A stretch of DNA of 64,000 nt. Source: Poseidonia sp. (GTDB lineage: Archaea > Thermoplasmatota > Poseidoniia > Poseidoniales > Poseidoniaceae). A program made the position numbers and the translations under genes. The stretch is taken from NCBI GenBank assembly GCA_965661285.1, contig CBFIDD010000001.1, positions 372,852 through 436,851 of the forward strand. Reading direction: 5' to 3'. Below the pieces are notes generated by a model. That model saw only the letters and a program-made list of their open reading frames with translations, did not search any database and was not told the DNA's origin. Positions 7,550 to 48,441 of the stretch are shown in pieces (position 1 is the first letter of the stretch; each line of letters opens with the position of its first letter).

Positions 7550-8734
7550 TCACAGTTCTGCGACACGAATGAGACGCGTCGTCCGGAAACCCTGCAGGAT
7601 TTTGATGAACCGCTTGGCTTGGAACTCAGCGTCGAGGTGCTCGTCTCCGGTGTCAATACGGACGGCATCGAGGCCGATCAGCTTTGACGGCGTGGCCACC
7701 CCGAGGATGTTTCCGTGTCCAATGCGCCGAAGCACCTCGGGAGAAAGCTGCAGATTCCCACGTCCGATGAGGAAGCCCTGTCCGCCCATGGGGGAGAGAA
7801 GTAGGAGAAGAGGGCGCTGCCCGTCTTCGTTTTCATGTCCGCCGATCACCTCGAGAAGACCGTCTTCGTTGAGGTCCTGATGCAGCGTATCGCCGTGTTG
7901 AACGTCAATACCGAGGAGGGTCAAGTCCTGATCCAGATGCTCACCCATGCGTCGTAGCGTGCCGCCGCTGCCCCACACAACCATCAAATCAGGTTCATCC
8001 TCAAGGAGACTCGAAACGTGGTGTGCCAATCCTTCAATCGTGTCTTCTTCACTGACACGTTCGACCTGTTCCTTGGCACCTTGCATGAAGCGCGGAGAGG
8101 AAGGCGTCCAGGCCTCACCGTACATTCGCACTTTCCATTCCCCTTTGGCGTAGACCGTCTCGTCAAGGTCCATGACCTCGGTGATGGCCGTGCGCAAATC
8201 GCCCAGGGCAAAGGAAAGCACAACCTCTGCTGCCGCCTTTGGCGTCGTGGCAAAACAGCCCGAATGCATTTTCACGCCACCGGGTACACCGATGAGGGCG
8301 ATTTTTTGGGCCTCTGCGCCCATGGTTTCGAGGGTGTTGACGATGTCGCGAGTGGTTCCATCGCCACCGGCGTAGACCAAGGCCTCCACCCCACCCTCTA
8401 CCAAATCACGAACAAGGCTTGCCGTATCTTCGGGTGATGTGGTTGAAGGCGTTTGCCCGAGAACGTCGACCGAAAACGGGGCATCATCGCTGAATTCGGG
8501 CAACCATGTCCCGCCCATGCGACCCTCCCAAACCAGCAGGTCGAGTGTGACATCACTTCGATTCAAGGAGGACGATGCGAGGGCAACGAGATGTTCAAGG
8601 CATTGTTGCATGCGAGGGCCAGCACGATCTACGGCACCCGCCGCCCGCGCCTCCTCGGCACGACCGTCGCTGCCTTTGAAGCCCAATTTACCCCCTAAAC
8701 CTGCGTCGGGGTTGACTACGATGCCAAGGCGCAT
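7550..8734 (-). CDS. ATP-NAD kinase family protein (COG3199-like)
   Basis: MRLGIVVNPDAGLGG..KGSDG, AGGDGTTRD, GVPGGVKMHSG, MGGQGFLIGRGNLQLS, IDTGD; start reassigned to the ATG at 8734. Confidence 0.85.
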   Translation of the reverse strand: MRLGIVVNPDAGLGGKLGFKGSDGRAEEARAAGAVDRAGPRMQQCLEHLVALASSSLNRSDVTLDLLVWEGRMGGTWLPEFSDDAPFSVDVLGQTPSTTSPEDTASLVRDLVEGGVEALVYAGGDGTTRDIVNTLETMGAEAQKIALIGVPGGVKMHSGCFATTPKAAAEVVLSFALGDLRTAITEVMDLDETVYAKGEWKVRMYGEAWTPSSPRFMQGAKEQVERVSEEDTIEGLAHHVSSLLEDEPDLMVVWGSGGTLRRMGEHLDQDLTLLGIDVQHGDTLHQDLNEDGLLEVIGGHENEDGQRPLLLLLSPMGGQGFLIGRGNLQLSPEVLRRIGHGNILGVATPSKLIGLDAVRIDTGDEHLDAEFQAKRFIKILQGFRTTRLIRVAEL

Positions 8735-8842
8735 GGCGATGCGTGGCGGCCCCCCCTCAAATAGACCTGCATGCTCACACTTCACACCCTTCATGGTCCA
8801 AACCACCCGAGCCTTCATGTGCATGAGGCGGGATGGAACATC

Positions 8843-9160
8843 ATGAAACGAGCCCCGGCGGACAGGCCCAACCTCGATGATGTGCTCGCACGAGATTTCG
8901 CAGAACTCAAGGTCGGAGAAGCCAACATCACGACCGAAGAAACGCCTGCCGTAGAGAAAAAAACAGCCCCCGAAGTCGCGCAGGCCCCCAGTACCCCGAA
9001 GGTCTACAACCAACGCATCGATGCCGTTGAGGACCGAGAAGCGTTCGTGGTGCGTGCTCCTGCATCAGAAGCACCCGCTGAGAAAACGGAACGCCCCGAG
9101 CGAACGGTGCTTAAAGCCCCCTCAACACAACCAGGCGATGACTTTGACGTGGACTGGTAG
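8843..9160 (+). CDS. Small disordered hypothetical protein with acidic C-terminus
   Basis: 105-aa ORF filling the gap, P/E/A/T-rich, ends GDDFDVDW; codon usage resembles neighbouring genes. Confidence 0.6.
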   Translation: MKRAPADRPNLDDVLARDFAELKVGEANITTEETPAVEKKTAPEVAQAPSTPKVYNQRIDAVEDREAFVVRAPASEAPAEKTERPERTVLKAPSTQPGDDFDVDW

Positions 9161-9241
9161 AACCCTCCGCAAGGGCGCGGAGAGAGCGCGGGATTCATAG
9201 CGAAGATTCAACCCCGTAGGGGCTGAGGAGACTTCGAAATC

Positions 9242-11266
9242 ATGAGCATGATTCACATCACGCTGCCGGATGGAACCGTGAATGAGTATGCAGCAGGCAT
9301 CTCCTGTGGCGAAGTCATCACCGACGCCATGGGCAAGAAACACGGATGCATTGCAGCGAAGGTTGACGGTTCCGAATGCGATTTGTCCAAGATTCTGGAC
9401 ATCAACTGCTCGGTTGAAGGCATTCCTGCCGACTCGGATGAAGGAATCCACATCCTGCGCCATTCTGCAGCCCACCTTCTTGCGCAGGCCGTGATGGAAC
9501 TCTATCCGGGCGCTTTGCCAACCATCGGGCCGGCCATCGACCGTGGATTCTACTACGATTTCGCCATGGAACCCATCACGCAGGGCGACCTCAAGGCCAT
9601 TGAGAAGAAAATGCACGAATTGGCTCGGCGCAACCTCAGCGTGGAACGTGTTGAACTGGACCAAACCACCCTGCGAGAGCACTTTGAAAGCAACCCGTAT
9701 AAGTTGGAAATCATCGATGATAAACTCGAGGCGGGCGACGGTTCAACCATCTACAAACAAGGCGAGTGGTACGACCTTTGCCTTGGACCGCACGTTCCGA
9801 GCACTGCGAAACTGATGTTCGTGCGTTTGACCTCGGTGTCGACCGCCTACTGGCGCGGCGACCAGGAACGAGAACAGTTGGTTCGAATTTACGGGCTTGT
9901 GGAGCCGTCCAAGCAAGCGCTGAAAGCTACCCTCACGCGCATTGAGGAAGCCAAAAAGCGAGACCATCGAAAACTTGGCAAGGACTTGCAGCTGTTTCAC
10001 ATCGACGAAGAAGTCGGCCAAGGGCTCATTCTCTGGACGCCTCGTGGAGCCGTGGTTCGTCAAGAACTGCAGGATTTCATCTCCCATCACCTTCGCCGCC
10101 AAGGGTATTCCCAGGTGTTCACACCCCACATCGGGAAGTTGGACTTATACAGGACATCCGGTCATTTCCCCTACTACCAAGATTCGCAATACCCGCCCAT
10201 CATCGAGCGGGACTTGATGAAGAGCTTGGCCGACGAAGGGTGCACCTGCGGCGACCTGTCGAACATGATGAAATCCGGTGAAATTGACGGCTACATGCTC
10301 AAACCGATGAACTGCCCTCATCACGTGAAAATCTACGCCAGTCAACCGCGTTCCTATCGGAACCTGCCCCTTCGGCTCGCTGAATTTGGAACCGTTTACC
10401 GGTGGGAGCAATCGGGGGAAATCTCGGGCATGACACGAGTTCGAGGCTTCACCCAAGACGATGCACACCTGTTTGTGACCGAAGAACAACTCGCTCAGGA
10501 AGTGCTCGGTTGCATTGAGTTGGTCCAGATCATCTTTGACAAACTCGGTATGGAAGAGTACCGGGTTCGCGTTGGTCTTCGAGACCCGGATTCAACAAAA
10601 TATGTGGGCGACCCAAAGCGCTGGGACAAGGCCGAGGAGGCCTGTCGGGCGGCAGCAGAATCGCTTGGCGTTCCTTGGTCTGAAGAGCATGGAGAAGCGG
10701 CCTTCTACGGACCGAAAATTGACTTCGTCGTGAAGGATGTCATCGGCCGAGAATGGCAACTTGGGACGGTACAAGTGGACTACAACCTTCCTGAGCGGTT
10801 CGATTTGACCTACAAGGGCAGCGATGGCGAACTCCACCGGCCGGTGATGATTCACCGCGCTCCGTTCGGATCGATGGAACGGTTCTGTGGCGTGCTCATC
10901 GAACACTTCGCCGGCCGGTTTCCAACCTGGCTCACCCCAACGCAGTGCCATGTCATCACGATTCGAGAGGAGCACAAGGCCTATGCCGCCAAGGTCGCCG
11001 ATGCGCTTCGAGCAGAGGACGTGCGCGTGGAGGTTGACGACTCCGGCAACAACATCATGAAGAAAATTCGTAACCATCGCAAATTGCAACCCGCCTACCT
11101 CATCATCCTCGGTGATGATGAAATGGGCAACAACACCGTGAGTCTGCGCGCCCGAAACGGCGACCAAATCGCTGGGATACCCCTGGAAAACTTCGTGGCT
11201 GACATCAAAAACGAAATCGACGAAAAGGTGAGTCAGCCATCGCTTGTCCCGCCGACAACAGAGTGA
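9242..11266 (+). CDS. thrS: Threonine--tRNA ligase, bacterial type (TGS + editing + catalytic + anticodon domains)
   Basis: ITLPDG, RHSAAHLL, GFYYDF, DLCLGPHV, RDHRKLGK, KPMNCPHH, RVRGFTQDDAH, AAFYGPKID, MIHRAPFGSMERF. Confidence 0.98.
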   Translation: MSMIHITLPDGTVNEYAAGISCGEVITDAMGKKHGCIAAKVDGSECDLSKILDINCSVEGIPADSDEGIHILRHSAAHLLAQAVMELYPGALPTIGPAIDRGFYYDFAMEPITQGDLKAIEKKMHELARRNLSVERVELDQTTLREHFESNPYKLEIIDDKLEAGDGSTIYKQGEWYDLCLGPHVPSTAKLMFVRLTSVSTAYWRGDQEREQLVRIYGLVEPSKQALKATLTRIEEAKKRDHRKLGKDLQLFHIDEEVGQGLILWTPRGAVVRQELQDFISHHLRRQGYSQVFTPHIGKLDLYRTSGHFPYYQDSQYPPIIERDLMKSLADEGCTCGDLSNMMKSGEIDGYMLKPMNCPHHVKIYASQPRSYRNLPLRLAEFGTVYRWEQSGEISGMTRVRGFTQDDAHLFVTEEQLAQEVLGCIELVQIIFDKLGMEEYRVRVGLRDPDSTKYVGDPKRWDKAEEACRAAAESLGVPWSEEHGEAAFYGPKIDFVVKDVIGREWQLGTVQVDYNLPERFDLTYKGSDGELHRPVMIHRAPFGSMERFCGVLIEHFAGRFPTWLTPTQCHVITIREEHKAYAAKVADALRAEDVRVEVDDSGNNIMKKIRNHRKLQPAYLIILGDDEMGNNTVSLRARNGDQIAGIPLENFVADIKNEIDEKVSQPSLVPPTTE

Positions 11267-13798: not shown

Positions 13799-15583
13799 TC
13801 AAATTCGTCGACGCAATCGCTCCATGGCGGCATCGGCTTGACCCAACGCTTCGAGGGTGGCCTCCACGCGCCCCCCATCGAGGGCGCTCTGCGCCTCGGC
13901 AATCGCTTCCTCACAGGCCCGGCGGTCCTCATCCACGACCTTGATGCTGGCTGCTTCGCATTGATTGCGCAGGACCTTCCACTGGTCGATGACGAAATCG
14001 TAGAGTTCCCTTGCTTCCTCACCGGCACGACCTTCCTTGTCCAAGGCTGAAGTCATGCGTTCCAGCAGCATGCCCGCATGCGACCACAGGCGCTGGTCTG
14101 CGGCCTCAACGATTTCCTGAAGCATGGCGTTCCATGTCTCGCGGTCGTCTCGGCTCTTGTAGCGCTTGGTGAGTTGCTTCTTTTGTTTCAGCGCACGAAG
14201 CACATCGTCCATCGCTGCCCGTTCTCGCTCAACCGTGCGAACCACGCCGTCAGCCAGGCCGATGGCTTGGCTGGCGTTACCAGCCTCAAGCGCCTGTTCT
14301 GCTTGGTCCAGACGCTCTTCAAATTCATCAATGTCCAAACCGTCACTCTGCGAGACCGTTCGCCTTGCTTCCACCAGGGAGGTTTCTGCCCGCTCAAGCG
14401 CACCTGCATCGGCTTCCAACTGTGGTAGAATGGCCGTGGCAAATTCGTACGCCTCCTTCGGTAGTTCCTTGGCCAATTTGGACTTCGCATCCTTGAGCAA
14501 TTCACGAAGATGAGCAACGCCGGCGCCCGTTTTTCCGTCGAGCGCTCGGGTGGCTTCCTGAATGACCTGTTCGGCTTTTGCCCACCACGTGATGATATCG
14601 CCCGCTCGCTTTTTGGCTTGGCGAAAAAGAAGTTCACCCTCTCGCAAGGAACCGAGGTTCACCTCACGCTCCCCCATGTCGTAGGCCTTGCGCGGTCGCT
14701 GGGCCGTAGGGGCGATGGCTTCGGCTGCAACAACCGCATCCAGCGCGTCATTTCGAATGATTTCAACATCGTCAGCCAGAGAAAGGGCCCGTTCCATGTC
14801 CTCCTCACTTTCGTCCAAAAGGCGCATCCCGTACTCGGGGTCGAGATGACCTTCCTCTTTGGCCGTGGTGAGCAGACTTGCTGCCTGTGCGACCGCAGCG
14901 CCTTGGGCTTTGAGCTCCAAAAGACGTGTTTCAAGACCATCGAGGCGCTTCTTGAAGCGTTTTCGCTCAGCCTTTTGGTCGTCGCCCACCGTCCACGTGT
15001 AGATAGCGTCCACGACGGCGATGGCCGAAACAAGTGCAGCCACCCCACCAGCCAGTGACTGGAACGCCTCGGTTTGTGTCAGCGTCAAGGCCACCGCCGA
15101 GGCTGAACCAATGCCGGTCAGGATGGCTCGGTAGCGAAGCACGCCGAAATTCCCGCGCATGGTTCGCTGCGAGAGTTGACGGCAAGCGACACCGGAGGAC
15201 ATGATGAGAACGCTGCCGATGATTTCAGAGCGAGTTCCGTCCAGGCCCAAGGCGCCTAAACAGAGCAATACGGGCCATGCGATGCTGGTGGCGGAGGCGA
15301 CGCGTGACCGAGCCACGGCGTCGTCGAGGGTCAAATCTTGAACGAAAATCCCCCACACCAAGAGAACGAGCGGAGCACCAAAACTGGACAATACAACACC
15401 ATCGCCTTCCATGAGACCATTGATGGAGGGCCATGCGAGCCACACAGCACACACCAACAGCGATAGCGCCGTCAACAACGTGGCGTTCTCAACGCGTTTC
15501 GTTCGTCGAAGACGCTCGGCCTCCACGGCTGCATCTGCATCCGCCCAGGTGACCATGGTGTGTGGCTTACCGGTGTTGCCCAT
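13799..15583 (-). CDS. Hypothetical membrane protein with long helical/coiled-coil C-terminus
   Basis: About 6 TM segments followed by ~390 aa of A/E/L/R-rich helices; start uncertain (15583 or 15556). Confidence 0.8.
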   Translation of the reverse strand: MGNTGKPHTMVTWADADAAVEAERLRRTKRVENATLLTALSLLVCAVWLAWPSINGLMEGDGVVLSSFGAPLVLLVWGIFVQDLTLDDAVARSRVASATSIAWPVLLCLGALGLDGTRSEIIGSVLIMSSGVACRQLSQRTMRGNFGVLRYRAILTGIGSASAVALTLTQTEAFQSLAGGVAALVSAIAVVDAIYTWTVGDDQKAERKRFKKRLDGLETRLLELKAQGAAVAQAASLLTTAKEEGHLDPEYGMRLLDESEEDMERALSLADDVEIIRNDALDAVVAAEAIAPTAQRPRKAYDMGEREVNLGSLREGELLFRQAKKRAGDIITWWAKAEQVIQEATRALDGKTGAGVAHLRELLKDAKSKLAKELPKEAYEFATAILPQLEADAGALERAETSLVEARRTVSQSDGLDIDEFEERLDQAEQALEAGNASQAIGLADGVVRTVERERAAMDDVLRALKQKKQLTKRYKSRDDRETWNAMLQEIVEAADQRLWSHAGMLLERMTSALDKEGRAGEEARELYDFVIDQWKVLRNQCEAASIKVVDEDRRACEEAIAEAQSALDGGRVEATLEALGQADAAMERLRRRI

Positions 15584-15685
15584 AATCACTCCGATTGGTT
15601 GCACAAGTGCGCACAGATGAGCGAACCGTTTGAGCGGCAATGTTCAAGGGTGTTATCGGAGTGTGAAGAGTTACGAGGGAACACC

Positions 15686-18185: not shown

Positions 18186-18230
18186 AATTTTTCAATTGAA
18201 ATTTTGAATATTCAATTGAAATTTATTTTA
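18186..18230. repeat. AT-rich tract with two direct copies of the palindrome TTCAATTGAA
   Basis: TTCAATTGAAATTT at 18191-18204 and 18211-18224 (20-bp period); a further palindrome TTGAATATTCAA at 18204-18215. Confidence 0.9.
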
Positions 18231-18434: not shown

Positions 18435-18776
18435 ATGTTGCAGCGTCTACTGAGGGAGTTTCTCAACGTTGATGGCGTGCAGCAGGCCATGATGATCGAC
18501 GACCGTGGAAAACTTCTGTCCAGTGTTTGTTTGGAAGGCCAACGTCCGCAGGTTGACCGTGCCGTATCCCTCACCGTCGCCGCTTTGGATGCGGTTCAAA
18601 AGCATGACCAAGGAGACATGCATGAACTTTGGATCGAAGGCGATGATCAAGTGCTCATCGACATCCTTACCCCGTACCGAATTGTCATGTTGAGCGGCAC
18701 AAACGCCAACATTGCACGATGGAGGCATTCCATAGACCACCTCCGTCCACAATTGGCAACAACCCAAGAAATCTAG
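18435..18776 (+). CDS. Roadblock/LC7 (MglB-like) domain protein
   Basis: Pattern LLREFLNVDGVQQAMMIDDRGKLLS...GDMHELWIEG...ANIARWR is typical of the Roadblock fold; 113 aa. Confidence 0.75.
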   Translation: MLQRLLREFLNVDGVQQAMMIDDRGKLLSSVCLEGQRPQVDRAVSLTVAALDAVQKHDQGDMHELWIEGDDQVLIDILTPYRIVMLSGTNANIARWRHSIDHLRPQLATTQEI

Positions 18777-18786
18777 GTGAACGCAC

Positions 18787-21700
18787 ATGTTTGAACTACC
18801 ATCAGGAACGCCCATCAACGAGACCATCACGTTGGAAGAAGGGGTGCTGCAGCCCTTCGCCCACGGCGCCATCTCCACCTACCTCGGGCGCCGAAAAACC
18901 CCCGCAGGCCATCGCCTTGTTCGTGGAGGCCGCATCGTGGGCTACCTCGCTGACGCCGAGGAAAAGAACACCCTTTTGGGTGGCGTGGAAGCGAAACTTC
19001 GACTGGAGCGGTTGGAAGGCGAGCAAAGATTCCGACATTATGCCTCATCTTACAGCATCGCTGAGCTGGGGAGTCTGGCAGAACTCGTACCCGAAGCCTT
19101 CGTTCACCAGGCTGACCGCCAGGGTCTGAAATCATCGACCAATGCCGTTGAACGCCTGCTTTCTCGCGACCTCTCAACGGTCATCCGCACGCTTGAGACC
19201 AACACCACGGTTCGAGGGGCGATGGCCATTGACAGCGGGATGCTCATCGACCATGTGGGCGACCTCCCCGGATTGGGTGAAGAGGAGCGCTTGGCCAGTG
19301 AACTTCACGAGATGATGACCGCCATGGGCGGACAGGACCTCCACAGCCAATGGGGCATGCAAGGGCAGAGCCACTGGACGCTCCACACCGAAAACGGCGC
19401 CCTGCTTCTCGCTCGCAGTGGCGAGATATCGCTCGCTGTTTGGACTGAAAAAGATGCGAACCACGCGCGCTTGCTCTCCTCCGCCTCCATCGCTTTGGAA
19501 GGCGACATCGTTGCAGCCGGCGCTCACGGCTCGAAGATGCCTGAAGGGTTCACACTGCGTGATGGCCGTGGCGGCCCTGACGCCGTCATTTCAATGTTGA
19601 AAGCCGGTCTTGAGGAGGCCGTGACCGGACATGTCCAGTCGGGCTCCTCCAGCAAAGCCGTATCGTTGGTGCTCTCACGAGGCGTCCCTGTGGCGCTCTG
19701 GTCTCCTGCTTTCAACACCGAAGAAGAAGCGATGATGGCACTGACCGAAGCCAAGCGTAAGGTCCAACTCATCCGATTCCCGGCAGGAACCATCGTATCC
19801 GCCGCCTCGGGCACCGTGGAATCGTTCACACTCGCTGGCTTCATCAAGTCGCTTGCCACCGTCCGAACACGTTCTGAAGCGCGTCAAGCCTCCCTCAAGA
19901 GCCTCCTCGATGACATGCTGGGTTTCCACGCAGGGCTCGAAACGTTGCAAAAGGAACGCGTGAAGATGGCGTTCAAGTCCGACGGAGCCGATGTCGCTGA
20001 GGCATTGCCCGTCATGCGGGACGAAGCGGTTGCAGCGGTCGACGCTGGCCTTCGACGGAAGTTGGAAAAAGCCGAGCACACCATCGACGAACTCAACAAG
20101 ACAAAAGCGGTGTTGGAAGGGCAACTCAAAGCGCTCGAGAAGAAGAAAGACGCTGCCCAAATCGTGGCTCGTGAAGCAGCCGAATCCCGGCAGGAAAACA
20201 CCACGGCACTGGAAGAGGCGCACGCTCAGTTGAACGCCATGCAGGTTGACCTTGCCCAAGCAAGAGGTCAATCGGAAGAAGCCGAAGCCCGTGCTGAACG
20301 GTTGGTTCGCCGTGTGAACGAGTTGGAGCATCAGGTCAGCGAACGTGCAGCTGAACTTGCCAGAGCGATCGGCGATGCCGAAAGCAGCGCCGAGTTGAAG
20401 CAAGCCATCGAAGCGTTGGCGCTGAAGGAAGCCGAATTGCAGGCCAATCTCGCTGAGGGAAGCGAACGTCTCGACACAATTCGAAAGCAAAGCGATGACG
20501 AAGAACGTCGATTGCGCGTGCTGAGCGAACAGGTGAACACCAGCCGAGAACGGCATGCTCGGGTTCAGGCCGACCTCATGACCGCGCAGGAACAGGTTCA
20601 CGTGAGCAATTTGGAACTCGAAGCCATCCGGACCGAAGAGAAACACGCTCGTCAACGCACCGAGGAAGACCGTGTGCGACGAGCGGAAGATGAGTCCCGT
20701 CGCGCAAATATTCAGGCTGAACTCCGAGAACTGATGGACGAACGCCGCCTAGTGCTTCGTGAGTTGGGTGATTTAGGTGCACGACGCGGTCATGCCGAAG
20801 CCGAACTTGCCTCGCTGGTCGACAAAGCCACGTCCCTGGCCGAAGCTCACGAAGAAGCGCTCGCCGACATTCAAGAAGCCGAGCGATTGCGAGCACGACT
20901 TGCTGAAGAGCCGCTTGCGCAAGCCTTGCTGGACGACAACAACACCTTCCAGGGTCTTGGGCCTGTGCTCGAACGGCTCGAACACGCTCGGGGCCTTGGC
21001 TATTCGGTCACCATGCTTGACCGGGCCGTTGAACGCGCGCTCCAGGTGATACAGAGCACGGTCGACCATGTGGCAGCGACACCCCGCCACCTCCTCTCCT
21101 CAGAAGTCATGACGCTGCTTGAGCGGCAGGTGCCCCAAACAGCGGGTGCCGTGCGGGGATTGGCCCGTTGGTCCGTGCAACAGCGTCTTGAGCAACAGCT
21201 TGGGGAAACCGTCAACCACGTGGTTGTTGATTTGGAGCATCTTCTCGAGGACTTTGACCGCTCCATCACCATGCTGCGACGCATTCGAAACGTGTTGGAA
21301 CAGGTTGAGCGCCTCGGTGCACCGTCCCACGAAGTGCACGCCCTGCTGGCCAATTGTCAGCGGCCTGAAGCCCTTCCGAGTTTGGCGCAGGGCACGAGAA
21401 AACTGATTCAAGTGGCCCTCGATGACATCTACCTTGAAGCCGACCAGCGTGATGCTGGCGAGGCCATCGGTTTGGAGGAAACGGCTCGGGTGCTCGAGGA
21501 ACTCATCACCCAATTGGACGCATCAGGCTTGACCGACGGTCGACCGAGCGGCATGATGTGGGACTTCCAACGTGATGGTTTGCTCCCCTTCGAGCGCGAA
21601 TCGATTCCTGCTGAGCAGCGGATACCCGTCAATGAAGCGATGCTCAACGACCTTGAACCGCACCTCGTCCACACCGAGGAAGTCTCGGTGGTCGACAACG

Positions 21701-21963
21701 TCAGCGAAACCGTGGACGACGAAGGGTGGGCTCCCCTGCCTCCGCCAGCGGACGATGATGAGCACCAGCACGAAGCAACGACCACCCCCTTCACACCCAG
21801 TTCAACCCCCGATGTGGACGATGAGCGAGCCGTGCTGGAAGCAGAACTGGCGCGTTTGGACGCCGAACGCAGCCATCGCATTGCCCACAACCCCGTTGAA
21901 GCACCCTCCAAAGACACGGCTCTCGCCGATTTGGAATCCAAACTTTCCGACCTTGACTTCTGA
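18787..21963 (+). CDS. Large multidomain protein: DUF2226-like, Roadblock/LC7, second DUF2226-like, long coiled coil, acidic tail
   Basis: 1058-aa ORF with SD-like AGGTGA upstream; Roadblock-like segment VRGAMAIDSGMLI...WTLHTENGALLLARSGEISLAVWTEKDAN; heptad-rich from about aa 350 to 720; DUF2226 call is tentative. Confidence 0.8.
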   Translation: MFELPSGTPINETITLEEGVLQPFAHGAISTYLGRRKTPAGHRLVRGGRIVGYLADAEEKNTLLGGVEAKLRLERLEGEQRFRHYASSYSIAELGSLAELVPEAFVHQADRQGLKSSTNAVERLLSRDLSTVIRTLETNTTVRGAMAIDSGMLIDHVGDLPGLGEEERLASELHEMMTAMGGQDLHSQWGMQGQSHWTLHTENGALLLARSGEISLAVWTEKDANHARLLSSASIALEGDIVAAGAHGSKMPEGFTLRDGRGGPDAVISMLKAGLEEAVTGHVQSGSSSKAVSLVLSRGVPVALWSPAFNTEEEAMMALTEAKRKVQLIRFPAGTIVSAASGTVESFTLAGFIKSLATVRTRSEARQASLKSLLDDMLGFHAGLETLQKERVKMAFKSDGADVAEALPVMRDEAVAAVDAGLRRKLEKAEHTIDELNKTKAVLEGQLKALEKKKDAAQIVAREAAESRQENTTALEEAHAQLNAMQVDLAQARGQSEEAEARAERLVRRVNELEHQVSERAAELARAIGDAESSAELKQAIEALALKEAELQANLAEGSERLDTIRKQSDDEERRLRVLSEQVNTSRERHARVQADLMTAQEQVHVSNLELEAIRTEEKHARQRTEEDRVRRAEDESRRANIQAELRELMDERRLVLRELGDLGARRGHAEAELASLVDKATSLAEAHEEALADIQEAERLRARLAEEPLAQALLDDNNTFQGLGPVLERLEHARGLGYSVTMLDRAVERALQVIQSTVDHVAATPRHLLSSEVMTLLERQVPQTAGAVRGLARWSVQQRLEQQLGETVNHVVVDLEHLLEDFDRSITMLRRIRNVLEQVERLGAPSHEVHALLANCQRPEALPSLAQGTRKLIQVALDDIYLEADQRDAGEAIGLEETARVLEELITQLDASGLTDGRPSGMMWDFQRDGLLPFERESIPAEQRIPVNEAMLNDLEPHLVHTEEVSVVDNVSETVDDEGWAPLPPPADDDEHQHEATTTPFTPSSTPDVDDERAVLEAELARLDAERSHRIAHNPVEAPSKDTALADLESKLSDLDF

Positions 21964-22217
21964 TGATCGGTATGTCAGACGAGACGACCACACTCATGGG
22001 GCGTGAAGAAGTGCCCGGAAAACCGTATCCATTATGGATGGAACGCGTGTTTCTGCTGGCGGCTGTGGTGGCCTTTGTGTACACCCACTCGAGTGTAAAC
22101 GAAACGATGGCCCATGATGTGTTGGGCCCTCTTGTGGCCTACGTCCTCTATCCGCTGGCGTTGCTGGGTGCCGTTGAGATGGCTGGACGCTTGCTTCAAC
22201 GAAGCAGAACCTCATAG
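21963..22217 (+). CDS. Small two-TM membrane protein
   Basis: TGATG overlap with the upstream gene; two hydrophobic helices (VFLLAAVVAFVY; LVAYVLYPLALLGAV). Confidence 0.7.
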   Translation: MIGMSDETTTLMGREEVPGKPYPLWMERVFLLAAVVAFVYTHSSVNETMAHDVLGPLVAYVLYPLALLGAVEMAGRLLQRSRTS

Positions 22218-23430: not shown

Positions 23431-24684
23431 TCAATACCCCCTCACCTGCATCAACGCTTGCGACAAATCCATGTCCGGCATCCAATCAATCACCTGAGCA
23501 CCCGAGCCCGCCAAGGTCGTCAAACGGTTTTGTCGCTCAAGTTTCAACACCTCATAGGACATGCGTGGGATGCGGCTGACGAGGCGCTCGAAATCAACAC
23601 TTGAGGGCGAAAGGACGGTGACCTCATGCCCTCGGCCAACCAAGTCTCGAACGGCTGCGGGAACGGTACCGTCGCCCTCACACGAGGAGATGATGAACAC
23701 GGGGCTGCCCCGACTAAAACGCCCGCTTAGCGAATTGGTCACGGCCTGCAGCGGCATGGCGCCTTGGGGGCGAACGCCAGCAAGCGCACTGAGGATCTTG
23801 AAGTACTGCTTGTCCCCGGTGTCGGGAGGCAAATACGAGAGTTTCTCATCGTAAATGGCCAGCGCTACCGAATCTCGTCGCTTCAAGAAAAAGGCAGCAA
23901 GGCTGGCGGCAGAAACCGTACCCATCTCGAGGGGATTCTTCAGCACGGTTCCGATTCGGGCCAAGTCTCGACTGTCAAGAATGAGGTAGAGGTCGGTGAC
24001 AGCATCGCGACATTTCTCGTTGACCATGAGGTCGCCGGTCCTTGCGAAGGCTTTCCAATTGATGTTCTTGAAGGGGTCACCGGGAACATATTCTCGCAGA
24101 GAATAGAATTCAGACCCCTGGCCGGGCGTGCGCAAGGTGGTTGCGCCCGTGTACATCTTGGGCGTTCGACTTCGCAGGAAGGCTTCCTCAATGTCCTTGA
24201 TTTGGGGGAAGATGACGATGTCGCTGTGGTGGTCGACGTACATCTCCTCAACGCCGAGATTGAAGGTGTTGCGAGCACGCAGGGAGACCGGGCCGATGGA
24301 ATAGTGGCCTCGTAGCGGGCAGCGCAACACGTAGCGGATACGTGCACTTTCCCCTGGCTTGAGATTCAATTGCATTTGGTTCAGTCCGCTGCGCAATTTC
24401 ATCTCGTGAGGAATGTTATCATAGATGTCGAGCATCTGTGTTTTACGATTGCTTCGGTTGGTCACCAGCAATTCGACGTACAGGTCGTCGCCCTTGTACA
24501 GGTTGTCAGCAGACAGCGTGCGCTGCACCTCGACATCGCCGTGGCCAGAAATCCACGAATTCACCACGATGAAGGCGATGAGCGTGAGACCGAGGATCAT
24601 CATTTGTTGATTGGAAATCATCATTCCAATCAGCACCAACGCAATGCCGCCGGTGAACGTGAACGCTGCCTTACGTGTCCACAT
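23431..24684 (-). CDS. DUF58 domain protein (vWA-like, MoxR-associated)
   Basis: RGHYSIGP, GQGSEFYSLREYVPGDPFKNINWKAFAR..LMV, ILDSR; two N-terminal TM helices. Confidence 0.9.
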   Translation of the reverse strand: MWTRKAAFTFTGGIALVLIGMMISNQQMMILGLTLIAFIVVNSWISGHGDVEVQRTLSADNLYKGDDLYVELLVTNRSNRKTQMLDIYDNIPHEMKLRSGLNQMQLNLKPGESARIRYVLRCPLRGHYSIGPVSLRARNTFNLGVEEMYVDHHSDIVIFPQIKDIEEAFLRSRTPKMYTGATTLRTPGQGSEFYSLREYVPGDPFKNINWKAFARTGDLMVNEKCRDAVTDLYLILDSRDLARIGTVLKNPLEMGTVSAASLAAFFLKRRDSVALAIYDEKLSYLPPDTGDKQYFKILSALAGVRPQGAMPLQAVTNSLSGRFSRGSPVFIISSCEGDGTVPAAVRDLVGRGHEVTVLSPSSVDFERLVSRIPRMSYEVLKLERQNRLTTLAGSGAQVIDWMPDMDLSQALMQVRGY

Positions 24685-41611: not shown

Positions 41612-44600
41612 CTACTGTTGTGATTGAGCGTATTGAATGGCGTACTGCTGCGCATAGGCTGCCGCTGTTGCGGCATCGTAGCCTTGGCCGACGAACTGCT
41701 GGTAGTACTGTTCGTAAATCGCTTGATCGAAGGCCGCCGCTGCGGGTTGGGCCGCCGCTGCGGGTTGGGCCGCCGCTGCGGGTTGGGCTGCCGCTGCGGG
41801 TTGAGCCTCAGCTCCGCTGACGTATTGCGCTGCGAACGCTCGTGCGGTTTCCTCGGGGTAGCCCTGAGCGATCAACTGCTGCACATACTGTTCGGTGGGG
41901 TCCAGAGCATCGGCGCCGAACGCACCTTCCATACCGCCAAAGGCGTCTTCTTTGTCGCCGCCACGGCGCATGAACATCATGGAGCCCAGGACGATGAGCA
42001 AGAGTACGGCGCCGCCGATGATGAGCATCGTCGAGTCAAGACCGCTGGAGGTTTCTTCACCGCCGTTGTTGGTCTGCGTGTTGTCGGTCCATTCCCCGGT
42101 GGTCGGGTCGTAAGACCAAGCACCGCTCCACTGGCAATCCCCGTTGGCGTCGAGAATGAATTCGCCACCGGCGTCAATCGCTTGCGGGTCGGCTTCCAAG
42201 CCCTGACAGGCTGGAAGGTTCAACTCAATCCATTTGATGGTGACCCATCGCTCGTTGGGGTAGTCACCCTCGTAGTACTTGATGTAGACACGTTGTGAAC
42301 GGGACTCGTTGGAGTACAGATTGCTCATGTCCAAGGTGATGTCAAAGCGGTCGCCATCGCCAAGAGCCGCACTCTTGCCCCAGAGGTTCAAAACGCTCAT
42401 GTTGTACTTCATCACGGAGGAAGCGGAAAAGTTCTCTTCAAAGAACGCTGCCTCAACGTAGACTTCACCGGTTTCTGCACCGGAGAGAACGCTACCGGAG
42501 ATGGTCAACGTATCTTCTTGGAACTTTGAGGCGTTCAACTGAACGTTATCCCATTGAATCGCTGGTTCTTCATCGCCGAACCCTTCAGGTACGATGACGA
42601 AGTACATTCTGTGCTTTTCGGAGAACTTGCCCGCGCTGTCGTAGACGATCAACTCGATGCGAATTTGGTTCTCGGTCGTGCCGGTGCTGTCCACGGTGAC
42701 GTTCTTGAATTTGTACGACCATTCACCACCGCTGGCTGCGGTCTGCGTGAACGTGTGTCCGTCCAAGTCAAAGGAATCGTCGCCATAGGGTGCGTCGAAC
42801 AAGACCTTCCATTCGTAGGTCTCGATACCGTTGCCGTCAAGCGCATCCTGATCGCTGGAGTTGCTGGCATCGAAGTGAATCACCAGCTCTGCGTCGTCGC
42901 CCTCACCTTCAAGGATGATGCGGTGAACATCCCACTCGACGTTGGAAACGGTCTTGGTGCCAATGAACTCAACGTTGTCTTCGTAGTCGGTACGCATGTC
43001 AATGACTGCATCGGCTTCAGGTCGGAATTCGTCAGCGTAGACATCGTTGGTCTCGACGACCACGTCAATGGTTCGAGCGTGGCCGTTGTCGTCATGGAGC
43101 ATCAGTGTGATATGCCACTGTTCACCTTGTGCGCACCCTGTTTGCGAGGCGAGGTCTGCCTTGCAGAACATCATGCTTGGAGCATCTTCGGTGGAGTGTC
43201 CGGTGACACCGCTCGCGAGCGTGGTGCCGTCCCAGTTCGTCGGACCGTCGATGATCCAATCAGCATGCAACGTTTCCGTTGTAGAGGTGGTGTAGCCGAA
43301 GTTCAGCGTGGCATCGCTCTTCATGTAGCGCAGTGCGTACTTGCCGGTGCTCGGGTCGATGCTTGGGACTTCGCCGTTGATGGTCAAATCAAGACCGTTG
43401 CCGAGCGTACCGAAGCCGTCGGGGTACGGGTTGACCTGATACTTCAGGAGGTTGCCCATCAGCGGGAAGGTGGTGCTGTCGGCTCGCTCTGAGTGCGTGG
43501 CAACGTCGATGGTCGAGATGATCATACCACCGGAGAAGTAGCTGCACACACCAAGCACGGTATCCTGAATGTCTTCCGAGGAACGGATGAGGCGCTGGAA
43601 GTACCCGCCGTCCTCCATGTACCCATCACACGTCTCCGGGACATTGTTGGTGCTGACCGACTTGGTGTTGAGGACGGCCTGAGCAACGCCCGAGTTGGCA
43701 TCGAAGCCCTGGAAGGCGTTCACGTCGACGTTGTCCATCACGGGGTGGTAAGGGTCGGCGAGATCCATCGTGTTGTAGGTGACTTGCGTCTCTGCGGTGT
43801 CGCGGCTTTGGATGTCCAAGCCGAACGGCAGGCGTCCAGAGAGACCTTGGTCAACACCGTAGATTTGGCTTCCGAGTGGACCCAAGTGCGCCTGGACGGT
43901 TCCGCCGGCGGACATGAAGTTCTCCAAGACAGTGCGTCGGGCGGGTTCACCGAGTTTCTGGTAGTATCCGTCGCCGCCGAACTGCGTGTCCTTGGCCACC
44001 AAAACCTCCTGCCATGGGAGCACGATCTTGTCGTAGTGGGTGAACCAACCTGCGTCAAAGTACGTGCTCCAGTCGTTGATCTCGTACTGGGTGTAGGTCA
44101 TGCCGAGAAGGGCAAGGTCTTGCTTGATGGCGGTGGTTCGCGACGAGGTGTCCGAGAGGATGGCGATGTCAACATGGTCGGCAAAGCTGGCATGGAAGTA
44201 GCGAACGTTGCCCGTTTCGGTGCCGTCAGCCAATTTTCCGTAAAAACTGATGTTGTAGGTCTTGCCGTCCATCCAACCATTCCATGGCGTAAATGACACC
44301 GAGGTCTTCTGTTGGCTTTGGAGAGTGACCGCTGGTCCCGAGTCAACGATGTGCGCTTGGCTTCCATCGGCCATATCGGTGACTTCCATGTAGAACACGT
44401 AATCTCCGGCGAGCACGCCGTTGGTGGCCTGAATGTCCCACGAGTGCGTCAGGGCACTGTCAATGGGGAGCACGCATTCGAGCGTTTGGTCGTCATGGCA
44501 GGCCAAAATATCGGGCTTTCCAATGGAGATGTCCACCGATTCAACGTTGAAAATCACACGTTCAATGTTGTTCGCTTCTGAAAGTTCGTTATCGTTGTAC

Positions 44601-47600
44601 CACGGCTTGCCGATGGTGGTGTTGTCAAAGATGGTCTGGATGTCCAACCGATAAACGCCGGCAAAGAACTCGTGGCTTGCGATAGTGGTCACGGCGGATT
44701 CCTCTGCATCGACGTTGGTTCGAGAATCCGTGTATACAGCATCCTGGACGAAGGTGTACTCCGAGAGCGAGATGTTGTTGAAACCGACGCCTCTGAAGCC
44801 GTCATTGATGCCGTTGCGGCCATCGTCATCCGATTGGAATTCGAAGTGGACGTCCACGGTGGAGCCTTGCAAGGACATGCATTCTGCTGTCCACTGGCTT
44901 GTATCCTGTGATGAACGGTTCTGGATGTACAAGTGCGTGAGATCAATACTGGTGGTCTTTACCAATTCCTCGGAATTGAAGAACACGTTGTAATTGCCGC
45001 TACCGTCGGTGTTTGCGGGGTCGCCAATGTAGGTGAGCTCCGTGAAGTCAATCGATTCTGTTGCGTTCACGATACCGTTGCCGTCGTCGTCGTTCTGGCA
45101 GGTGCCGTCTTCGTTGTAGTCGTTCCATTGAGCGAACACAAGACCGGTGTAATTCGCACCGTCCTTTGCGTAATCAACGGTCATGGTAGCGTAGTCACTG
45201 GGATCCACATTGCCGCTTTGGTCAATGGTGTAGAAGGTGTCAGCGTAATACTCAAAGTTGAGGGAGACGAAGTCGCCACTCATGCTGGTCAGGTCGATGT
45301 CCGGGATGGTGAGGGTTTCGTTGGCCCAAGCATCGTCATAACCCAAAGTTCCGGTGTCACAGGGGTGGCCGAACCAGTAGGCGTTGTTGTTGAAGATCTT
45401 GGTGGAACAGCTGTTCTCGTTGTAAATCGCACCCTTCGGTTGTTGGTTCTCCTCGTATCGGTAGCCTTGCGTGCCACCCTCAAACGTCTCTTCGCAAACA
45501 GCAGAGGGGGTACCGCAGTACACGTCGGAAGGCGTGGCGGAATAGACCGTCGCTTCGATATCAAAGTCCACTGGCGTGTTTCCGTAGTTATTGGTGACCA
45601 CTGCAATGTCGAAGGTGCCCTCGGCATAAAGACCGCCGGTGTTGAAGTAATCGATGGATTCCACCGTCGGGTCGTAAAGGTTGAACGGCGTGACATAACC
45701 CACGGCGTCATCGTTGATACCTTGCTCGTCCCACGCATTGTTGGAAATGGTGGCTGAAATCCGGTAGGTTGTGTCGTTCAGCAAATTGGCCGAGATGGAC
45801 GTCGTGTATTCCTGCCCGGGTTGAAGGTTGCTGAGCGGACCAATGGTGGTGGATTGCGTCTGTGGGTTGGGGAAGAAGGCTGTGTTCTGTTTCCAGATGG
45901 TTAAATTGTCAACAGCAAAGCCGTCTCGGCCGCTCCAACGGCTTTCGTTGTCATCGGCTGTTGAGCCTTCAAAGCCGGTGCGGAAGCGGAAACGAAGGTC
46001 CACGGTTTCGCCAGCCCATGCGGACAGGTCAAAGGCGCCGAGGTCTTCCTCGGTGAAGTTGTCCCAGCCGTAGTAAGTTCCGGATGCAAACAGGCCGTAA
46101 TAGACGATGTTTTCGGGTGCGGCGCCCCAAGCGTTCTGCTTGAAGCCCCGGTCGTTGTCGAAGCCTCCCCAAATACTGGCGCCAGAAGGACAGGCGCCGT
46201 CAAGAGCGGCCTGTTGCGGACAGCCAATGAGGCTCCATCCGGTTTCTTCACTTCCGACCTCGACGATGGCCAGGTCGTCCCAAACATCGCCGACGATGAA
46301 GCCTGAACCGTCAGAACTGCCCAAGGCACCAAGGCCGAGGTGTCGGAAGAGCTCAACGCTCATGAAGGCACGGTCGGCTCCGGTAAGGTCGACGTCGTTG
46401 AGGGTCATCGCATCGTCCCAATTCTTACCGTAACCGCTCCATTCATCACCTGAACTGTTGGTTTTCATGTTGCCAGCCCACATGAAGTCGGTCGGGTTGA
46501 GGTAGTTTGCAGAGATGTTCTCGTCGTTGTTTCCGCCGCCGGTAGCGCCGGTTGAGTGGTTGGTTTCAAGGTGCCAATTGGTCGCACCGTCCACGAACTC
46601 TTCGAACGTCCACGAACAGCCCGATCCACAGCCGGTCTTGTCCTCCGGAGAATCCCAGTCGTTCGCGTAGACCGTGGTGTTGCTGGAGTTGGCTTCGTCA
46701 ACGATCTTCAGTTCGACATCCAAATCGGCTGTTTGCCCGTTGAGGGTGTCCATGCCTGTGTTGGTTACGGTGACATTGATGTTGCGGGTTCCCTCGCCAA
46801 CAACGCCAAAGAAGCGGTCCGTTGGTGAAATTTCGAGGCCGGTAACAGCCAGGTCCTTGTTGTCCATTTCTACCACGGTGAGGGTGTCGTATTGTCCGGC
46901 CCATCCGAAGTTGTCTCGCCATCCGCCAAAGTTGTAGTTGGTGTGGCCGACAACGAGGTCGGGGGCTGAGCTGCTGCTGCCCTGCAATTGGCCAATAGCG
47001 ACGGCTGAAGGCCGACGACCAGCAGGGTAAGAGAGCGGGCTCACGTGGCCGCCGTTTCCGTCAGAAAGGGTCACTTGGACGGTGGTCGGGAAGTTGAGGA
47101 AGAAACTCGAGGTGCTTCCTCCTGCAGAGTCAGAGGTGTTTTGCTGGAAAGCGATGGTCGGGTTGACAAAGTCGGGCTCGCCATCGCCGTTCAAGTCAGT
47201 AACTTGGATGGTCCACGAGATGTAGGGTCCGAAATAGGCCAACTGCGAGTTTCCAAAGGTTCCCTGAGCGGTGGCTTGCTTGTAGCTCACGTTTTCGAGG
47301 TTGCTGTCCATGACGGCGATGGTGTCAATGTAGCCGCTCCCGCCAACGTCAGCGATGGAAAAATCTTCGGTCAGGTCGACGCCCATGTTGATGATGTGGG
47401 TGTTGGCTTGGTTGGTCCCGTAGGAGTAGGTAGCAGGATAGTTCTGGAGTTGACAGTCGTATTCGATGATGGTGATGTTATCGTCGTTTCCTGGGTTGGT
47501 GGTTTGGCCTGTGGTGTAATCCAAACCTTCGCTACGAAGCAAGAAGATATCATCGTCGGTGCAGGCGCCGGTCAGTCCGCTCTGAGACTCGCCGTAATCG

Positions 47601-48307: not shown

Positions 48308-48334
48308 CACTTGGTCATCGGATGGCCTGTTCGG

Positions 48335-48340
48335 ATATAA
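48335..48340 (-). promoter_or_regulatory. Putative TATA box of the giant surface protein gene
   Basis: TTATAT on the minus strand about 28-33 nt upstream of the ATG at 48307. Confidence 0.5.
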
Positions 48341-48441
48341 TGCCTTTGTACTCAAGTTCCCCGAGACCATGGGCGCAAGCCCTCGTTTTTGTTCAAAATC
48401 GCCCGGATTTTCTCCCGCTGAATTTAGGCCGGATAGCCCTG

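Follow-up and report, generated by a model that had tools for sequence, protein, structure and literature searches.

Positions 18435-22217 of the stretch of DNA analysed here (64,000 nt, namely positions 372,852-436,851 of the forward strand of contig CBFIDD010000001.1 in the Poseidonia sp. assembly GCA_965661285.1; hereafter the window) hold a cassette of three plus-strand open reading frames (ORFs), which we call A, B and C. At the A-B junction, the motif AGGTGA contains the TAG stop codon of A, and 10 nt lead to the ATG of B. At the B-C junction, the TGA stop codon of B overlaps the ATG of C in the sequence TGATG. An earlier note on this DNA, made from the sequence alone, had described three tightly coupled genes at this place, and its coordinates, the 10-nt gap with AGGTGA and the TGATG overlap were all borne out. 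We conclude that the A-B-C locus is real and strongly conserved and that its three genes are translationally coupled. The coordinates of all features are listed in Table 1.

The product of gene A was compared with Pfam and, as a profile of 16 orthologues, with the PDB. It scored 26.1 bits against the family Robl_LC7 (PF03259; gathering cut-off 23, E 7e-6) and 25.7 bits in a Pfam scan of the whole genome. The profile matched 7f8m_A from Thorarchaeota (E 1.7e-11) and 7yh1_D, an MK-D1 protein (E 2e-9), followed by 9hef_A (Rv3364c, E 2.1e-6) and 7f8f_A (E 2.2e-4); matches to MglB (E 0.04) and MglC (7ct3_A, E 0.073) were weak. With a Pfam score above the cut-off and these PDB matches, A is by its sequence a Roadblock/LC7 protein, and the earlier note was right to call it a stand-alone one.

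The head of B (amino acids, aa, 1-420) was modelled with AlphaFold2 (AF2) from an alignment of 18 orthologues. The model has a mean predicted local distance difference test score (pLDDT) of 81.8 and a predicted TM-score (pTM) of 0.70, and it comprises three domains, d1-d3. The order of secondary structure elements of d2 at aa 120-240, alpha-beta-beta-alpha-beta-beta-beta-alpha, matches the long form of the Roadblock fold exactly. A Foldseek search of the PDB with the head gave 99 matches at E <= 0.001. The 30 listed were all Roadblock, LAMTOR, MglB or dynein LC7 chains, with target-normalised TM-scores of 0.47-0.80 (most of them 0.6-0.8) and with 7f8m_B at the top (E 7.4e-6, prob 1.00). At the sequence level, the profile of the head matched cvnB5 (3leq_A, E 0.0025 at aa 141-233) and LAMTOR4 (E 0.05) in the PDB, Robl_LC7 matched d2 in 6 of the 18 orthologues (best E 2e-5), and hhalign aligned A with d2 at E 0.0029 over 94 columns. 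On the evidence of the AF2 model, the Foldseek matches and the six orthologues, d2 is a Roadblock domain at fold level, and the internal Roadblock-like domain that had been proposed for B is real in that sense.

We predicted the complex of A with aa 1-400 of B, each with its own alignment, in three runs and with three controls. The scores were 0.55, 0.59 and 0.45 (median 0.55), compared with 0.00 for the three controls; the runs agree in at least 68% of the contacts, and the pLDDT of the partner is at least 78. In the calibration of this procedure, 58 out of 80 solved complexes attained the mark, as did 2 out of 110 mismatched pairs; scores at or below 0.60 were seen for only 7 of those 80 solved complexes plus both passing mismatches. 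Because Roadblock dimers have already been solved, the pass of the A-B pair may reflect likeness to them. According to the available text of PMC10933270, Roadblock proteins are dimeric platforms. Since the predicted complex is joined by strict co-conservation and by the coupling of the two genes, we consider it rather likely that A pairs with the head of B.

The two domains that flank d2 are less easily placed. In d1, residues M1, F2 and P5 are invariant in the alignment of the 18 orthologues, and the core at about aa 26-100 (pLDDT blocks of 84-93) is predicted to contain strands at aa 26-33, 41-46, 49-56, 62-65 and 82-88 and helices at aa 66-79 and 91-100. The predicted order of d3 (aa 255-330, pLDDT blocks of 89-94) is beta-alpha-beta-beta-beta-alpha-beta. 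The region that leads from d3 into the stalk has predicted helices at aa 349-358 and 364-392, and its pLDDT falls below 50 from aa 400. Neither d1 nor d3 had a Pfam match in the 18 orthologues or a paralogue in its own genome, and a word-indexed profile search with d3 returned four proteins, all of them fragments of B's own family. The two domains had been described as related to each other. This did not hold at the level of profiles, as hhalign gave E 0.15 over 10 columns only; according to the models, both may nevertheless hold a beta-beta-beta-alpha-beta core.

The head is followed by a coiled-coil stalk. Its 3.5-residue hydrophobic periodicity amounts to 2.77, compared with a mean of 0.17 for shuffled sequences, and none of 500 shuffles reached 2.77. 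The sole proline of aa 401-700 sits at position 408, N-terminal of the stalk, which is therefore free of proline. In the AF2 model, a continuous helix runs from aa 641 to aa 707 (pLDDT 90-94). With the textbook rise per residue, the stalk would be ~42 nm long if continuous. The coiled coil that had been claimed for B is thus present, but it extends over ~290 aa (about aa 421-705) instead of ~370 aa and then gives way to a separate conserved helical domain.

This latter part of B is the best conserved of the protein. Column identity per 20-aa block is 0.54-0.87 at aa 640-940, compared with 0.31-0.62 in the head. In the AF2 model of the C-terminal part (aa 640-1058; pLDDT 76, pTM 0.51), aa 706-940 form helices only, mostly with pLDDT values of 66-90. 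Foldseek found no PDB match to the C-terminal part at E <= 0.001. For the C-terminal domain, the best match of the profile in the PDB was FliS with a non-significant E of 0.03, the Pfam profile search gave nothing significant, and the Atlas search gave no usable match. A word-indexed profile search returned 178 proteins; among the 120 listed, all had E <= 3e-102 and lengths of 215-793 aa, and those with names were Poseidoniales, Thermoplasmatota or 'Euryarchaeota' records. We read these proteins as pieces of B's own family.

The last 118 residues of B comprise a linker and a tail. The linker (aa 941-1012) contains 26% D+E, 1% K+R and 10 prolines, and its pLDDT is below 50 at model residues 324-368, corresponding to aa 963-1007. 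The tail helices lie at model residues 369-395 and 405-415 and carry a net charge of -5. The consensus of the tail motif is ALxxLExxLSDLDL, the copy in the window ends with ...LESKLSDLDF, and L1049 and L1053 are near-invariant. With a net charge of -5, the tail does not suggest a lipid-binding helix; a peptide-docking motif would be more likely. A resemblance of the tail motif to the ESCRT-III MIM motif was followed up and rejected: the best MIT match in the genome scored 11.5 bits against a cut-off of 30, and Snf7 had no match.

Gene C encodes the small protein with two transmembrane segments (2-TM) that had been noticed next to B. Hydropathy analysis with 19-residue windows located its two hydrophobic spans at aa 23-41 and 52-75. 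The 13 aligned orthologues have in common the motif TLxGRxExxGxxYPxWLER at the N terminus and, beyond the second span, a conserved E..GR..Q. The protein is co-conserved with the rest of the cassette.

Table 1. Features of the A-B-C cassette and its upstream region, in window positions
Feature	Position	Strand	Basis
Candidate operator/promoter element, two TTCAATTGAAATTT copies, each with the 10-bp palindrome TTCAATTGAA	18191..18224	.	Exact copies vs chance, related loci
Gene A, stand-alone Roadblock/LC7 protein, 113 aa	18435..18776	+	Pfam Robl_LC7, PDB profile, synteny
Gene B, 1058 aa	18787..21963	+	ORF list
B aa 1-118, d1, predicted beta-rich N-terminal domain	18787..19140	+	AF2, invariant columns
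B aa 119-246, d2, predicted internal Roadblock-fold domain	19141..19524	+	AF2, Foldseek, profile matches
B aa 247-345, d3, predicted small alpha/beta domain	19525..19821	+	AF2
B aa 346-420, predicted helix and low-confidence linker into the stalk	19822..20046	+	AF2
B aa 421-705, heptad-periodic coiled-coil stalk, ~285 aa	20047..20901	+	Periodicity vs shuffles, AF2
B aa 706-940, conserved domain, predicted all-helical	20902..21606	+	Column identity, AF2
B aa 941-1012, acidic proline-rich linker, predicted disordered	21607..21822	+	Composition, pLDDT
B aa 1013-1058, two predicted short C-terminal helices, conserved tail motif	21823..21960	+	Alignment, AF2
Gene C, 84 aa, two hydrophobic spans, conserved N-terminal motif	21963..22217	+	Hydropathy, 13-orthologue alignment

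The distribution of B was determined by searching 201 Poseidoniales genomes with aa 1-400 as the query. B was found in 125 of them, namely in 95/99 genomes of family f1, 2/2 of f2 and 27/99 of f3. It occurs in genera g1-g9, g11-g13, g18 and g20-g22 and was not found in g10, g14-g17, g19, g23 and g24; the f3 genera without B have the smallest genomes (1.2-1.7 Mb). As full-length intact ORFs are conserved in 125 of the 201 genomes, chance is excluded. Of 151 genomes sampled from the whole phylum, 20 gave a match to a profile of the C-terminal part of B; all 20 were Poseidoniales, and the 126 other Thermoplasmatota genomes gave none. In an exhaustive search with phmmer, 1.84 billion cluster representatives yielded no more than 64 matches at E <= 0.001, each 1020-1089 aa long or a shorter piece. 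The named relatives were Candidatus Poseidoniales, Thermoplasmatota or 'Euryarchaeota' records, all 'hypothetical protein'. The public records of some fragments of the B family carry the names 'SbcCD ATPase subunit' or 'myosin heavy subunit', a misnaming due to the coiled coil. Because the phylum, phmmer and word-indexed searches returned only B's own family, this family appears to be specific to Poseidoniales as far as the searches reach.

Synteny was examined in 17 loci from 16 genera and in 30 additional loci, 29 of which belong to the genus of the window (including the window copy) and one to genus g2. Gene A lies directly 5' of B in all 47 loci. In each of the 30 additional loci, the A-like ORF ends between 10 nt before and 8 nt after the start of B. 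An A-like frame is present in 17/17 of the wider loci; 15 of them had fed the profile, and the remaining two (L040 and L044), independent of it, had the frame as well. For C, a C-like frame was seen in 15 of the 17; 12 of these had fed the profile, whereas L035, L043 and L049 are independent. The two misses are L044, where the contig ends inside B, and L040, which contains runs of N. Just beyond the 5' end of A lies a TtuA-like gene in 16 of the 17 loci, and in L043 it is ~600 nt away. Beyond the 3' end of the cassette, a gene for a 405-aa membrane protein and a DUF58 gene were found in 14 of the 17 loci; they are not shown in the three other stretches. In the B-less genomes inspected (one of g14, two of g16, one of g23), the TtuA-like gene abuts the 405-aa membrane-protein gene in 4/4 cases, with a gap of 293-434 nt. 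We conclude that A, B and C are present or absent together at one fixed site and are lost together. Synteny across relatives is thus strict, and its loss, which had been set beforehand as refuting the three-gene reading, was not seen. Since the cassette occupies the same place in both large families, its presence in the ancestor and later loss in streamlined genera would be the simpler history.

Some individual loci show deviations of their own. In L035 (G003:C1, ~1852802-1855974), a TGA or a frameshift near the 3' end splits B into 947 and 111 aa, with A and C intact; this may be either a sequencing error or a recent disruption. L043 (G004:C6, family f2) is the only locus seen with a broken B-C junction: at ~8280-9500, B is separated from a displaced C-like frame (E 4.8e-6) by an additional ORF that carries aspartate-rich repeats.

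No GTPase gene is found among the genes neighbouring the cassette (pyrB/pyrI-like, TtuA-like, 405-aa membrane protein, DUF58 and DUF4350). MglA and MglB genes count as coupled if a gene for an MglA-family GTPase lies within about four genes, as stated in the available text of PMC4316618. The Ras and Roc hidden Markov models (HMMs), run on the genome of the window at E <= 1, had a 371-aa NOG1-like protein as their sole match over the cut-off. A Walker-A scan covered all ORFs of at least 100 aa in this genome, and ten candidates were named with Pfam: three known GTPase candidates and seven small ORFs picked by visual inspection among the 83 Walker-A matches of up to 420 aa. The products comprised translation factors, proteins of the signal recognition particle type, NOG1-like, MeaB and GPN-loop (ATP_bind_1) proteins, a thymidylate kinase, an NTPase_1 protein and others; three small Walker-A ORFs were without a family match and may be spurious. 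Neither the Ras and Roc HMMs nor the Walker-A scan revealed an MglA- or Ras-like protein in the genome. The claim that no GTPase adjoins the Roadblock genes is therefore correct, and the genome-wide search for Ras and MglA came back empty too. The absence is, however, less unusual than the earlier note had implied, as 328 of 749 MglB homologues are listed as 'orphans' in the available text of PMC4316618, none of them characterised by 2014.

Across the order, the Ras HMM matched 1 of 201 genomes at E <= 1e-6. This sole Ras-family match (G144:C7 and C15, L075-L077) consists of an intact 294-aa frame (113.9 bits) and, on the other contig, three pieces, one of them with internal stops. Because of the pieces and the internal stops, and with 2% contamination recorded for this genome, the matches may represent contamination, possibly eukaryotic DNA.

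The genome also encodes a second stand-alone Roadblock-like ORF of 121 aa (L002 1438-1803, plus strand; G000:C2:307245-307610). Its Pfam score of 16.5 bits lies below the cut-off, and the A profile matches it at E 9e-4. Its neighbours are two coiled-coil proteins (285 and 291 aa) with similar LLAGExL(T/S)xEE ends, and another ORF. A single-sequence query found it in 65 of the 201 genomes; since it evolves too fast (56% identity within the genus), this pattern is unreliable.

Taken together, we give a little more than an even chance to the view that the cassette encodes a Poseidoniales-specific, membrane-anchored scaffold built on a Roadblock heterodimer, without a GTPase partner and structural rather than enzymatic. 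In such a scaffold, A and d2 of B would form a two-protomer Roadblock platform, as in every solved member of the superfamily. B would dimerise via its coiled coil to give a rod of ~40 nm. The conserved C-terminal domain or the tail would serve as the docking end, and C would tie the assembly to the membrane; the partner to which the novel conserved domain and the tail of the rod dock is probably the 2-TM protein C. As the genome yielded no GTPase of the Ras or MglA type, the platform would probably act as an adaptor, like dynein LC7, MglC or the LAMTOR subunits, rather than serve as a GAP (GTPase-activating protein) of the MglB type. A bolder version, which we regard as conceivable and put forward tentatively, is a GTPase-free, cytoskeleton-like tether with an A-B Roadblock cap, a ~40-nm rod and a helical domain docked on C, lost cleanly in streamlined open-ocean genera. 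An alternative of the same novelty would be a platform that controls a non-Ras NTPase.

Several points weigh against the scaffold. The B copy of the window matches no Pfam family at E <= 1, and the fold assignment of d2 is that of a predicted model. For the heterodimer of A and B that the earlier note had envisaged, the predicted complex speaks in its favour with 0.55 against 0.00 for the best control, but the prediction was graded only 'weak support' and came without an interface. In a homodimer of B, the two Roadblock domains could be each other's partner, which would leave A another role. The acidic terminal helix of B is atypical for membrane binding. As the genome is 93% complete, a GTPase could sit in its missing part, and a non-Ras NTPase partner encoded elsewhere is possible. 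The order-wide absence applies to Ras-like proteins only, because the threshold of 1e-6 misses Thermus MglA in the controls. A search for RNA runs that cover the locus listed none. Finally, the genome counts overstate the support because related genomes are not independent. Of the picture drawn in the earlier note, the Roadblock domains, the rod, the 2-TM partner and the synteny remain, whereas the relatedness of the flanking domains and the PATAN or DUF2226 membership that it had named for checking do not, and the pairing has weak support.

The reading that competes most directly makes the A-B platform a true NTPase regulator, GAP-like or of the guanine nucleotide exchange factor type as in MglB and Ragulator, whose partner is encoded elsewhere and is not of the Ras type, for example a GPN-loop, NOG1-like or other P-loop protein. 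Small GTPases are commonly bound by Roadblock/longin dimers according to the available text of PMC10933270, and the superfamily has been proposed to be general NTPase regulators (Koonin and Aravind 2000, as cited in the available text of PMC4316618). The genome indeed encodes GPN-loop (ATP_bind_1), NOG1-like and MeaB GTPases. None of their genes is near the cassette, however, and the cassette is absent from 76 of the 201 genomes of the order, whereas GTPases of the GPN-loop and NOG1 type are widespread archaeal housekeeping proteins; we consider this reading improbable, if deserving of attention. Somewhat more doubtful still is that B is a signalling protein of PATAN-Roadblock-PATAN architecture, as a divergent member of PATAN/DUF4388 or of DUF2226. 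The predicted order of elements in d3 would suit it, an Atlas search with aa 246-345 gave clusters with DUF2226 (47% of members) and PatA_N (51%) at 0.82, and MglB homologues have been reported near PATAN proteins (Makarova 2006, as cited in the available text of PMC4316618). The Atlas value of 0.82 is sub-threshold, though (a third of shuffled proteins exceed it), and no relationship between d1 and d3 was detected. Membership in either family, which the earlier note had named for checking, failed throughout the HMM searches: DUF4388/PATAN (PF14332) matched 0/18 orthologues at E <= 5, nothing in the genome at E <= 10 and 0/151 genomes of the phylum over the cut-off, and DUF2226 (PF09987) matched 0/18 orthologues at E <= 5, nothing in the genome at E <= 10 and 0/151 genomes at E <= 1e-5.

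By analogy with MglAB, the cassette might also serve motility or polarity as a module for positioning or regulating the archaellum. In family f1, both are near-universal (cassette in 95/99 genomes, archaellin in 97/99), and both are missing in several small-genome genera (g14-g17, g23). Yet in g12, g13 and g21, B is present in 15/15 genomes and archaellin (PF01917) in 0/15, whereas g19 and g24 have archaellin in 17/18 and B in 0/18. The archaellin genes of the window's own genome are ~230 kb away (C1:160162, compared with C1:391286 for the cassette). Because the patterns of B and archaellin disagree in five genera, an obligatory role in the archaellum is unlikely. The archaellum-coupled version of the polarity and signalling system proposed in the earlier note fails on this phyletic pattern, and we give the archaellum reading very little credence. 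Even less probable is that the cassette works with the convergent cluster of the 405-aa membrane protein, DUF58 and DUF4350, which resembles the MoxR/vWA type. The adjacency of DUF58 and the 405-aa membrane protein is kept in 14/17 loci, and weak matches to VMAP-C occur in d3 (E 0.1-0.13, 2/18 orthologues), but these lie far under the 27-bit cut-off. The DUF58 gene is moreover present in 201/201 genomes as opposed to B in 125/201 and is therefore independent of the cassette, and the DUF58 cluster is unchanged in 4/4 cassette-free genomes and convergent in orientation. The last reading, that B is a chromosome protein of the SMC/Rad50 kind, draws on weak NCBIfam matches (SMC 27.1 and Rad50 20.8 bits), on PADLOC JetC and on the fragments named 'SbcCD ATPase subunit' or 'myosin heavy subunit'. 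The cut-offs are 567 and 1087 bits, and the matches extend over nothing but the coiled coil (aa 408-847). Furthermore, no ATPase-head family matches B, and B is absent from the Walker-A plus G3/G4 matches of a scan that covered proteins of its size. As the ATPase head is absent, this reading is effectively refuted, with scarcely any chance left to it.

PADLOC was also consulted for a defence system, which we rejected: it returned only weak coiled-coil matches, JetC and LmuB, at E >= 0.003.

Upstream of A, a 321-nt AT-rich intergenic region is shared with the divergent TtuA-like gene, whose product has PP-loop and TtuA LIM domains (Pfam). This region contains two exact copies of TTCAATTGAAATTT, at 18191-18204 and 18211-18224, with a spacing of 20 nt; the window holds two exact copies compared with 0.03 expected by chance. 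In 33 of 46 related loci, a TTCAATTGAAATTT site with at most one mismatch occurs within 350 nt 5' of A. These sites lie 107-305 nt upstream of A and are often paired 20 nt apart, while the background elsewhere in the same loci is 0.072 per kb. In the cassette-free genomes, the equivalent gap has a TTCAATTGAAATTT-type site in 1/4 cases. The pair of TTCAATTGAAATTT copies with their TTCAATTGAA palindromes looks like a conserved operator and is a candidate operator or promoter element.

On the other side, the 3' end of C overlaps the 3' end of the convergent gene for the 405-aa membrane protein, followed by the DUF58 and DUF4350 genes. The DUF58 protein (window 23431-24684, minus strand) shows 67-100% identity among the matches listed, compared with 24-92% for the head of B. 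It is accompanied by DUF4350 and the 405-aa multi-span membrane protein, and no gene for a MoxR-type ATPase is adjacent. The rest of the window holds housekeeping genes, including those for ThrRS, CTP synthase, a pyrB/pyrI-like pair, CDC48 and a succinate dehydrogenase flavoprotein, and no signal of a mobile element was detected among the families scanned in the window. A 613-aa protein encoded at 13799-15640 (minus strand) is hydrophobic in its N-terminal part, contains a long region that is charged and helical, and is without a family match; by tblastn, it lies near the cassette in 6/17 cassette loci and near pyrB/pyrI in 2/4 cassette-free loci. A 2289-aa ORF at 41612-48481 (minus strand), with an FG-GAP-like repeat as its sole Pfam signal, probably encodes a giant surface protein.

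Poseidoniales are among the most abundant planktonic archaea. To our knowledge, none has been cultured, and we know of almost nothing about their cell organisation. B is among the largest conserved genes of unassigned function in this order. The cassette joins an ancient Roadblock module, relevant to eukaryotes, to a rod and a putative membrane anchor in genomes without a detected Ras-like GTPase; because no such GTPase was found, it offers a natural test case for Roadblock platforms without canonical partners. Its clean loss in small-genome genera provides a comparative handle on function. If the GTPase-free tether exists, the Roadblock platform, from which Ragulator and the dynein adaptors derive, can be a pure structural adaptor in a prokaryote without Ras-superfamily switches.

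We found no description of the B family in the titles and opening lines of abstracts of the papers listed for Roadblock in Poseidoniales, Marine Group II or Thermoplasmatota, or for orphan MglB, coiled coils and archaea; the supplementary orphan tables of PMC4316618 may hold Thermoplasmatota entries. Among the papers listed, Roadblock and those lineage names occur together only in an Asgard review, once each. Set beside the known systems, the cassette is a variant of the Roadblock kind with a new architecture and stands outside the MglAB, conservon, PATAN and SMC systems. With MglB/MglA of Myxococcus and Thermus, it shares the MglB-type Roadblock fold of A and, as predicted, of d2, and a dimeric platform is expected. 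The MglB chains 6hjm, 6izw, 6h5b and 1j3w are among the Foldseek matches of the B head (E ~5e-5 to 1e-4). In contrast to that system, the search for an MglA- or Ras-like GTPase was negative both next to the cassette and in the genome, one of the Roadblock domains is placed inside a 1058-aa coiled-coil protein, and a heterodimer is expected instead of a homodimer. The orphan MglB homologues and MglC are likewise Roadblock proteins without a coupled GTPase gene; MglC is described, in the text available on it, as a Roadblock paralogue with the role of an adaptor in the polarity module. Here, however, a stand-alone and a rod-embedded domain form a fixed pair, together with a membrane protein and within one archaeal order.

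Ragulator (LAMTOR1-5) resembles the proposed scaffold in that Roadblock heterodimers sit on a membrane-anchored scaffold, the anchoring being predicted in our case. The LAMTOR chains 5y3a, 5x6v and 6b9x are among the best fold matches of the B head (E 2e-5 to 6e-5). Ragulator differs in docking the Rag GTPases, which themselves bear Roadblock domains and have no counterpart in the genome with the cassette. Its anchor is the lipidated LAMTOR1, whereas that of the cassette would be the putative 2-TM protein C, and the long coiled coil is without a counterpart in Ragulator. The Asgard Roadblock proteins (Thor-RB, 7f8m; MKD1-RB, 7yh1) match A and d2 best, in sequence as well as in fold. In the available text of PMC10933270, they are homodimers and proposed scaffolds or membrane-interacting modules. 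Unlike the proteins studied here, they are single-domain proteins from genomes rich in small GTPases, without a rod fusion and outside such a cassette. In the Streptomyces conservon (CvnA-D), described as a membrane-associated multi-protein complex in the available text of PMC4316618, CvnB is a Roadblock protein, and cvnB5 (3leq) is the best PDB sequence match to d2. The conservon contains, in addition, the histidine-kinase-like CvnA, CvnC and the GTPase CvnD, none of which is among the genes flanking the cassette, where the Roadblock protein A is instead coupled to the rod protein B and the 2-TM protein C.

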